This document shows positions 13,641-14,294 of a DNA stretch of 24,000 nucleotides, piece by piece. The position numbers and the translations under genes were made by a program. Where the stretch lies: positions 58,284 to 82,283 of the forward strand of contig NZ_JBQCCF010000064.1 of the NCBI RefSeq assembly GCF_051962475.1, read 5' to 3'. How positions within the stretch are numbered: the first letter of the stretch is position 1; each line of letters begins with the position of its first letter. Below the pieces are notes generated by a model. It saw nothing but the letters and a program-made list of their open reading frames with translations. It was not told where the DNA came from and ran no database searches. Source of the stretch: Dyella sp. GTDB lineage: Bacteria > Pseudomonadota > Gammaproteobacteria > Xanthomonadales > Rhodanobacteraceae.

Positions 13641-14294
13641 TCAGGTGGTGTACATCGCCGTCCCGGCGGTGGCCGGAAACAACAGCCAGGTATTGCCCGG
13701 CAGGCTGTCGTACTTCTTGTCGAAATAGATGAGGATGGTGATGTTCTTGCTGGCTGCCAGTGCGCGGTAGCGGGCGCAGCACGAGAGGCACGGGCGCGTG
13801 GTTTGCCCAATGCCCAGCAGGGTCACGCCGGTCAGACTCCCAGAGATGCTCTTCCACAACGCGCGTTCGGCGCAGTGCGAGGCGGTGCTGTTTATCGCGA
13901 ACGGCGCGTTCGAGGCCAGGTCGGTCTTGGCCAGCTTGCTGGTGTCGTTGTCGTAGTTGGCGCTGAAGGCGTTGAAGTAGATCGCGTTGCGATCGCTGCC
14001 GCCGGCCGGCACCTCGATGGCGTCGTAGACCGCCCCCAGGCAGGCGGCGTTCGGCAGACCGTGCTGGCCACCCAATGTTGAAAGCGTGCTACCGGTGACC
14101 AGGTTGGCCGCCGTCAGCGCGGTGGTGGCCGCGTTGTCCCATTCGGGCACGTCGGAGGTATCGCGTCCGGTGGTGGTGGCCGTTACCACCAGGTCCCACC
14201 CTTTGTTCTTCCCGCACTTCGTGCACTTGCCCGGCTTCTTCGTTGCGGTGACTACCTCGTTGCATTTGTCGTTCTTGCACTTGTAGTTGGCCAT
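13641..14294 (-). CDS. Zn-ribbon + Thr-rich linker + CDA-like deaminase-fold protein (217 aa, deaminase A)
   Basis: The ATG at 14294 has AAAGGAG 8 nt upstream. The N-terminus is MANYKCKNDKCNEVVTATKKPGKCTKCGKNKGW (C6, C11, C24, C27). The core carries STASHCAERALWK (13866-13877 encodes HCAE, checked on the DNA) and, 24 residues later, RPCLSCCARY. CAER-ALWK resembles the CAERxALFK helix of small cytidine deaminases as I recall it. Two predicted terminal strands follow (ITILIYF, TWLLFPA). High GC3 codon usage argues for a real gene. Confidence 0.7.
   Translation of the reverse strand: MANYKCKNDKCNEVVTATKKPGKCTKCGKNKGWDLVVTATTTGRDTSDVPEWDNAATTALTAANLVTGSTLSTLGGQHGLPNAACLGAVYDAIEVPAGGSDRNAIYFNAFSANYDNDTSKLAKTDLASNAPFAINSTASHCAERALWKSISGSLTGVTLLGIGQTTRPCLSCCARYRALAASKNITILIYFDKKYDSLPGNTWLLFPATAGTAMYTT

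Follow-up and report, generated by a model that had tools for sequence, protein, structure and literature searches.

A zinc-ribbon protein with a predicted deaminase fold, encoded within a Dyella type VI secretion locus, as a candidate effector from a new deaminase clade

Deaminase toxins that are delivered by bacterial secretion systems are the closest described counterparts of the protein analyzed here. DddA (SCP1.201, BaDTF1) and DddB (Pput_2613, BadTF3) are interbacterial toxins of this kind that deaminate double-stranded DNA, and a cognate immunity protein is known for both DddA and SsdA (PMC7901873). Secretion-linked deaminase toxins without immunity proteins have also been noted, and distantly related targets, for example a eukaryotic host, were proposed for them (Iyer et al. 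2011, PMC3239186); XOO_2897 has no adjacent immunity protein, which was read as possible use against a eukaryotic (plant) host (PMC3239186). The type VI secretion systems (T6SSs) of Dyella fall into group 3, resemble the X. citri system most closely and contain a variable region, with conserved genes of unknown function following PAAR and vgrG (Bayer-Santos et al. 2019, PMC6653060). The X. citri T6SS provides resistance to Dictyostelium and no antibacterial advantage (PMC6653060). Here we consider a 24,000-nucleotide stretch of Dyella sp. DNA (contig NZ_JBQCCF010000064.1, positions 58,284 to 82,283; hereafter the window), the architecture of which agrees with the published description of the Dyella group 3 T6SS, and within it a gene whose product we call deaminase A. 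The protein is very probably a catalytically competent enzyme with a predicted deaminase fold that represents a new clade, and we hold with moderate confidence that it is a T6SS effector.

Deaminase A is a genuine gene. Its GC content at third codon positions is 0.88 in a window of ~67% GC, and the ratio of nonsynonymous to synonymous substitution rates (dN/dS), which is 0.04-0.12 overall, indicates purifying selection, with values of 0.11 against a Rhodanobacter orthologue (88% identity) and 0.04 against the orthologue of Dyella ginsengisoli. The product has a mass of 23 kDa and an isoelectric point (pI) of 8.7, and no hydrophobic N-terminal signal sequence is apparent, as judged by eye on the sequence with no predictor run. 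An open reading frame (ORF) of 324 residues that overlaps deaminase A (12883..13857) is a mechanical extension; the real adjacent gene begins at the ATG at 13584 with its own ribosome-binding site. A scan for promoters and terminators gave nothing exceeding chance.

The family to which deaminase A belongs is extremely rare. A word-indexed search of 5.8 billion proteins returned 19 full-length homologues of ~216 residues, all at least 62% identical, which carry only the name "hypothetical protein" and come from Dyella sp. and Rhodanobacter sp. An exhaustive hidden Markov model search of 1.84 billion cluster representatives found 26 proteins at E<=1e-3, every one of them short (<=263 residues), standalone and unfused, and a second profile search for fused or more distant relatives yielded nothing new. 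Close relatives were found in 3 of 185,579 species-representative genomes, namely Dyella ginsengisoli Gsoil3046 (locus L012, 98% identity), Rhodanobacter terrae and a metagenome-assembled Dyella genome, a count that is a lower bound because the scan used exact peptide patterns. The Dyella from which the window derives is evidently a near relative of D. ginsengisoli. No relatives occur in 72,556 plasmids or in 50,697 phage records, PADLOC has no match for deaminase A or any of its neighbours, and BFVD contains no viral structural relative; on this basis an origin from a mobile element was rejected.

The conserved residues of this family are those expected of a zinc-dependent deaminase. On the translation C6, C11, C24 and C27 of the N-terminal ribbon, the HCAER and RPCLSCC motifs, and the 24-residue spacing from E143 to P168 are all located where the original prediction had placed them. 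Among homologues of 62-99% identity, 17 of 17 retain all four ribbon cysteines and the CAER...RPCxxCC block unchanged, and in the close clade C173 is likewise invariant, the motif there reading PCLSCC in deaminase A. When the alignment is extended to 32 sequences and down to 23% identity, the sole invariant residues are C141, E143, Q164, P168, C169, C172 and A180, that is, the zinc and catalytic signature of deaminases together with a clade-specific Gln (Q164) that ends strand 3. Position 140 varies among homologues (H/Q/R), and since H140 is not conserved the first zinc ligand would be C141 instead. The middle residue of CxE is A in the close clade and A/F/Y/H/S in the wider family, the residue that follows CxE is variable, TTR or DTR precedes the PC of PCxxC, and an Arg after PCxxC is confined to a distant subclade. 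In six-frame translation the window yields ~36,900 residues, with a single match to [CH]xE-x20-35-PCxxC; given this lone match and the invariance of the motifs in homologues, they exceed chance.

The ribbon resembles rubredoxin. The Pfam model RUBY_RBDX matches six of the 32 family members scanned (best E 2.8e-6), and the NCBIfam RCKP rubredoxin-like model aligns with the ribbon of deaminase A at E 0.005, under that model's cutoff. Some of the 26 cluster representatives have a ribbon while it is missing in others, and it is therefore an accessory module. Between the ribbon and the catalytic domain, residues 37-80 have a pI of 4.2, and a conserved extension ahead of the catalytic domain starts at W52.

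A first AlphaFold2 (AF2) model made with close homologues only was mediocre, with a predicted local distance difference test score (pLDDT) of 76, and a second model made with the 32-sequence alignment reached a pLDDT of 90.3 and a predicted template modelling score of 0.76, residues 37-80 having the lowest values (pLDDT 70-77). In this second model the ribbon strands span residues 2-6, 14-17 and 33-36, and the core as assigned by DSSP comprises helix 1 (83-92), strand 1 (104-115), strand 2 (120-133), helix 2 (142-153), strand 3 (159-166), helix 3 (170-182), strand 4 (186-193) and strand 5 (202-206), with an extra short strand predicted at the C-terminus (214-216). The CAE motif is predicted to lie at the N-terminus of helix 2 and PCxxC at that of helix 3, so that both hallmarks of the superfamily, helix 2 opening with [C/H/D]xE and helix 3 with PCxxC, are present in the alignment and the model. 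Strands 4 and 5 are predicted to be joined directly as a hairpin, with helix 4 absent and no C-terminal helices, and the model shows the C-terminal hairpin division's strand and helix order. The ribbon, Thr-rich linker and deaminase core recognized in the original prediction are thus borne out by the invariance of the Cys, CxE and PCxxC residues, RUBY_RBDX, AF2 and Foldseek, and the two terminal beta-strand-like segments correspond to the predicted strands 186-193 and 202-206 plus the short one at 214-216. Its description of a compact deaminase of 90-100 residues behind an extra N-terminal 130 residues has to be revised: residues ~83-133 already belong to the predicted deaminase fold, as its helix 1 and strands 1-2, and the catalytic domain is therefore ~135 residues long (about residues 80-217).

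Databases were searched both with the predicted structure and with the sequence. The top Foldseek matches in the PDB are APOBEC3F/G/B/C/H, APOBEC1, AID, DddB/BadTF3, SsdA, DYW, TadA and guanine deaminase, and these top matches belong exclusively to the deaminase superfamily or to the distantly related JAB/MPN fold. A sequence-profile search of the PDB with deaminase A gave nothing relevant. No Pfam or NCBIfam deaminase model matches deaminase A at E<=1, and when 32 family members were compared with Pfam there was no deaminase model among the 25 of 32 matched families listed, apart from a marginal Pput_2613 hit in which one of the 32 members grazes Pput2613-deam (PF14427) at E 0.061, under the cutoff. 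On the modelled fold, deaminase A is placed in the deaminase superfamily and in its C-terminal hairpin division, and outside every described family, since none of the signatures that Iyer et al. list for the clades is found in it.

The genomic setting of the close clade (48-99% identity) is constant. All 11 loci (the window, L001/L002, L003/L004, L005, L006, L012, L013, L014, L017, L020 and L007) place the deaminase gene directly or 1-3 genes after clpV within the T6SS cluster, and upstream of PAAR/vgrG as in the window; L007 (48% identity) fits too, its upstream fragment being the C-terminus of ClpV. Part of the original argument, the location in a secretion-system cargo region, accordingly holds both for the window and for each of the 10 related loci with context, the gene sitting after clpV and ahead of PAAR/vgrG. 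Apart from the deaminase gene, island content has been completely reshuffled among loci that are collinear elsewhere (L001, L003, L005, L006, L013, L014 and L017). Across loci the island neighbours include OTT_1508-like and dCMP/XOO_2897-like deaminases, Endonuclea_NS_2, HNH and Cys...His proteins, as well as proteins without a Pfam match that look EEP-like or HExxH-peptidase-like by eye only, and in L003, L017 and L020 the gene that directly follows the deaminase homologue encodes an OTT_1508 deaminase. The GC content is 0.62-0.65 across the island (~9600-15000) versus 0.68-0.73 in the flanking T6SS core genes, and this lower value is consistent with a horizontally exchanged variable region.

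From these data we propose that deaminase A belongs to a new deaminase clade and acts as a cargo effector of the T6SS, deaminating a nucleic-acid base in the recipient cell, a reading to which we give an even chance. The toxin role is suggested by genomic context alone. In the proposed mechanism the catalytic zinc would be held by C141, C169 and C172, with E143 serving as the proton shuttle of a hydrolytic deaminase, and the four-Cys ribbon would bind a second zinc. The T6SS would fire the protein as a small cargo into other cells, where it would attack a nucleobase, with cytosine in DNA or RNA as the most plausible one, and cause mutagenic or toxic damage. The ribbon may aid either loading onto Hcp/VgrG/PAAR or substrate binding. 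The lack of an immunity gene that travels with deaminase A, combined with a T6SS subtype that acts against amoebae in X. citri, suggests that the targets may be non-kin and possibly eukaryotic. Our confidence is low as regards a polynucleotide substrate, a eukaryotic target and the role of the ribbon. To a more elaborate version we assign only a small chance: a polynucleotide-editing deaminase of a clade apart from DddA, SsdA and APOBEC, immunity-less and used by an amoeba-directed T6SS, with the ribbon as a new cargo-loading tag. If this were true, Dyella and Rhodanobacter would keep in their variable region an arsenal of effectors that modify nucleic acids and lack immunity partners, and this region would offer new base-editor scaffolds.

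Several results weigh against the proposal that deaminase A is a deaminase delivered as T6SS cargo. The fold matches are weak, with Foldseek probabilities up to 0.99 accompanied by a best E of 0.014, TM-scores of 0.3-0.43 and no match at E<=0.001. The structural comparison that the original prediction recommended came out in two parts, with the deaminase strand and helix order present around the motifs in the AF2 model, and with structural neighbours that are weak and are polynucleotide deaminases rather than CDA. Delivery domains (PAAR, Rhs, MIX, FIX and DUF4150) are absent from deaminase A and its island neighbours according to Pfam and NCBIfam, and the same models find no adaptor genes (DUF4123, DUF1795 and DUF2169) there. 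In the profile searches, fusion to a polymorphic-toxin scaffold is seen in none of the family members, and the distant members that lack the ribbon lie on short contigs where no T6SS genes are visible. In a tblastx comparison of the 1.2-kb flanks of ten loci ClpV was the only shared flank, and an all-against-all BLASTP comparison of island proteins revealed no partner universally linked to the deaminase. Because no neighbouring gene is conserved across loci, no immunity gene is evident. By analogy with the known T6SS deaminase toxins, the joint lack of an immunity gene, a trafficking domain and an adaptor is atypical.

These points bear on four other explanations. Deaminase A could be a classical antibacterial T6SS effector whose immunity protein has gone unrecognized, whether a p148-like protein nearby or one encoded elsewhere in the genome. 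We consider this unlikely, although it would agree with the immunity partners of DddA and SsdA (PMC7901873) and with the position of p148, a protein encoded directly upstream of the deaminase in the window, in L012 (9482-9928) and in L005 (9483-9929), and present as a remnant directly downstream of it in L006 (3312-3485). However, p148 lies 2 kb away in L014 (12657-13103) and is absent from L001, L003, L013, L017 and L020 by tblastn and locus inspection. Proteins of 168 residues in L006 (2047-2553) and 193 residues in L007 (849-1430) that flank the deaminase share the N-terminal pattern P-x4-C...G-x-H with p148, but this connection consists of an alignment at ~25% identity, BLASTP gives no link between p148, p168 and p193, and with nine members from the homologue search the p148 family is too small for a bridging profile. 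The conservation of no one gene beside the deaminase in all loci also speaks against it. The absence of an immunity gene and a trafficking domain would be accommodated if deaminase A were a cytoplasmic enzyme that is not secreted and merely resides in the variable region, with a free nucleoside, a nucleotide or a small molecule as its substrate in pyrimidine salvage or in detoxification of a nucleoside antibiotic (compare blasticidin-S deaminase). CxE is typical of the CDD/CDA/BSD group (PMC3239186), and deaminase A shares with CDD/CDA a CAER helix 2 and a PCxxC helix 3 at similar spacing, as well as the structural division; in an hhalign comparison of the family profile with B. subtilis CDA the CAE and PCxxC motifs align in register (E 0.0017, probability only 15%). 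To this extent the resemblance to CDA noted in the original prediction stands, and beyond it the likeness was overstated. The synapomorphies of CDD/CDA are PCxxCR in helix 3 and a Glu after strand 5 (PMC3239186), whereas deaminase A has no PCxxCR, carries the additional ribbon and extension, and continues after strand 5 (202-206, TWLLF) with P/S and A/T and no conserved Glu. CDA is not found among the top 50 Foldseek matches in the PDB. The argument in the original prediction against a housekeeping cdd was well founded, and that identity was rejected: there is no match to PF00383, dCMP_cyt_deam or cdd models at E<=1, the synapomorphies are missing, and the gene is extremely rare and restricted to T6SS loci. 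With close relatives found by exact peptide patterns in 3 of 185,579 species genomes, always in a T6SS locus among nucleases and toxin deaminases, a non-secreted metabolic enzyme is in our view decidedly unlikely.

A role inside the producing cell, as an accessory or regulatory T6SS factor for instance a chaperone that binds zinc or a factor that modifies a component or a transcript of the T6SS, would require no immunity gene and could explain why the deaminase is the most persistently kept gene of an otherwise fully shuffled region, often the first after clpV. Its occurrence in three species-representative genomes (by exact peptide patterns, the Dyella and Rhodanobacter genomes that have such a T6SS being uncounted) is not core-like, however, and it evolves faster than ClpV (~69% versus 84% identity between the window and L003). 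Moreover, the invariant catalytic residues favour an enzyme and all neighbours have toxin-type domains, and together these observations make an accessory function improbable. Deaminase-based defence systems exist, and for anti-phage defence by nucleotide depletion or DNA editing this precedent and the island GC below that of the flanks could be cited. We regard defence as highly improbable given the lack of a PADLOC match and of plasmid, phage or BFVD relatives, and a context that is invariably the interior of a T6SS operon.

The features of deaminase A and of its surroundings are collected in the table below, where the genes are given in transcription order.

Features of deaminase A and of the T6SS locus in the window (positions of the window; all genes on the minus strand)
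Feature	Position	Strand	Basis or remark
TssC, Hcp, TssE, TssF, TssG, upstream of ClpV		(-)	Pfam
ClpV (T6SS ATPase), conserved upstream landmark	14944..17679	(-)	Pfam AAA_2, AAA_lid_9, ClpB_D2-small
p148, 148-aa protein directly upstream of deaminase A	14368..14814	(-)	no Pfam match
Shine-Dalgarno sequence AAGGAG of deaminase A	14302..14307	(-)	7-nt spacer to ATG at 14294; read from sequence
Deaminase A, complete coding sequence, 217 aa	13641..14294	(-)	ORF list and start analysis, 19 full-length homologues
Residues 1-36, four-Cys rubredoxin-like zinc ribbon (C6, C11, C24, C27), three short strands	14187..14294	(-)	Cys conservation, RUBY_RBDX, AF2
Residues 37-80, Thr-rich variable linker (37-47), then conserved acidic extension (W52, G75-G76, P81 nearby)	14055..14186	(-)	alignment
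Residues 81-217, predicted deaminase-fold catalytic domain	13644..14054	(-)	AF2 and Foldseek
C141-A142-E143, predicted zinc ligand and catalytic glutamate, N-terminus of helix 2	13866..13874	(-)	translation; C141 and E143 invariant in 32 sequences
P168-C169-L170-S171-C172, predicted PCxxC zinc ligands, N-terminus of helix 3	13779..13793	(-)	translation; P168, C169 and C172 invariant in 32 sequences
Stop codon of deaminase A	13641-13643	(-)	
Endonuclea_NS_2 (PF13930), 233 aa, standalone, immediately downstream of deaminase A	12883..13584	(-)	E 1e-13
131-aa protein, CAEAQAL and PCDNC ~40 residues apart	12210..12605	(-)	strong Shine-Dalgarno sequence AAAGGAGG
OTT_1508-like deaminase (PF14441), 249 aa	11315..12064	(-)	E 2.5e-8
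344-aa protein, Gly/Ala-rich hydrophobic stretch GAKIGGLFADFGTATTAGIGVANAMASLGLTLVSLG	9954..10988	(-)	no family match
145-aa protein after the 344-aa gene, just upstream of PAAR	9378..9815	(-)	no family match
PAAR, 95 aa, downstream landmark	8808..9095	(-)	translation near-identical to PF05488-bearing genes in L005, L006
TPR and SAM-methyltransferase	7414..8796	(-)	Pfam
VgrG	5304..7643	(-)	Pfam
DUF6931, Fha, TssK, after VgrG		(-)	Pfam

Among the core genes, Hcp and TssE are separated by an ORF of 258 residues whose counterpart in related loci is a TagJ/ImpE gene. A TPR-methyltransferase gene comes right after PAAR in every related locus. The p148 protein carries a Cys26...Gly-Gly-His43 motif, the spacing of which we take to be reminiscent of CheD-type Cys/His enzymes; it may be a further effector or serve as a partial immunity candidate, and a weak likeness to p148 is also seen next to the deaminase in L017 (9291-9944). 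An Endonuclea_NS_2 gene also follows the deaminase homologue in L005 and L012, with no obvious immunity gene. The 131-residue protein has no Pfam, NCBIfam or PADLOC match and may, by its motifs, be a third, unclassified deaminase-fold gene of the island. At the N-terminus of the window's OTT_1508 protein a mini zinc motif (C4-x2-C7...H18-x3-C22) precedes a helix rich in Arg and Glu, and a comparable N-terminal CxxC...HxC motif is found on an HExxH protein in L014 (10824-11585); N-terminal zinc knuckles may be a common feature of the cargo in such islands. The 344-residue protein might be a membrane-active effector; it is conserved in L005 (83% identity), and ORFs similar to it and to the 145-residue protein are present in L012. 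Related islands encode additional distinct small deaminases (L001 11533-12192 and 12267-12725; L003 12426-12899). One of these is an OTT_1508-like protein of 219 residues (HAE...CGDC), and another, of 152 residues (AHGE...PCTKC), has weak, sub-threshold matches of the dCMP_cyt_deam_1, XOO_2897, MafB19 and APOBEC types. Three unrelated deaminases can therefore be encoded one after another within one T6SS variable region.

Comparison with the named deaminase families defines what distinguishes deaminase A from each of them. SCP1.201 proteins are recognized by [HD]xEx[KQ] in helix 2 and an Asn at the end of strand 3 (PMC3239186), and assignment to this clade with DddA was rejected in view of CxE with a variable +2 residue, Gln164 instead of Asn and the lack of a Pfam match; hhalign of the family profile with DddAtox gave E 0.49 and no alignment beyond the CxxC turn. 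For Pput_2613 the signature is HTE in helix 2 with PCxxCK in helix 3 (PMC3239186). Neither is present in the deaminase A family and the DddB clade was rejected as well, the DddB structure (9K3E) being the top PDB match of the first AF2 model and rank 22 with the better one. The MafB19 clade, with HxE as its signature (PMC3239186), was rejected in view of the CxE of deaminase A. AID/APOBEC proteins provide the best structural matches by Foldseek, with E 0.014 and probability 0.99 for the C-terminal domain of APOBEC3F and TM-scores of only 0.3-0.43; membership was rejected since they are members of the helix-4 division and have HxE, SxS before PCxxC and two extra C-terminal helices, all of which deaminase A lacks. 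The OTT_1508- and XOO_2897-like toxins are secretion-linked deaminases too, but again of the helix-4 division and with HxE. Between deaminase A and the OTT_1508 deaminase encoded in the same island, hhalign detected no similarity beyond the CxxC turn, and it found no profile similarity between the deaminase A family and the neighbouring 131-residue CAE/PCDNC protein.

The relation of deaminase A to engineered deaminases adds to the interest of this locus. Mitochondrial and other base editors have been derived from bacterial toxin deaminases such as DddA and SsdA, and every new clade brought a new substrate or sequence preference. The clade described here is outside Pfam and NCBIfam and has no close solved structure, and as a standalone protein of 23 kDa deaminase A would be easy to test and engineer. 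Its function would help define the effector repertoire and the targets of a T6SS subtype whose sole characterized member defends against amoebae.

SsdA of P. syringae (BaDTF2, DYW-like; PDB 7JTU/9C63), a T6SS toxin that deaminates cytosine in single-stranded DNA, provides a further comparison. It turns up in the Foldseek list as a weak match (E 0.19-0.38), has HxE(K), and comprises a toxin domain at C-terminal residues 260-410 of a larger effector (PMC7901873) with an adjacent immunity protein, SsdAI. The DYW-like signature is HxEK in helix 2 and an Asp at the end of strand 4 (PMC3239186), and this clade was rejected on account of CxE followed by a variable residue instead of HxEK and of the missing Pfam match. 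Deaminase A differs from SsdA in being standalone, in its CxE motif and N-terminal zinc ribbon, and in having neither a linked immunity gene nor a match to a sequence model. Its genetic setting is atypical, without an immunity gene or delivery domain and amid nucleases and other deaminases that are likewise immunity-less. In sum, T6SS-linked deaminase toxins are already known, and what is new here is the clade, together with an architecture in which a zinc ribbon is joined to a standalone, predicted CxE deaminase of the hairpin division.

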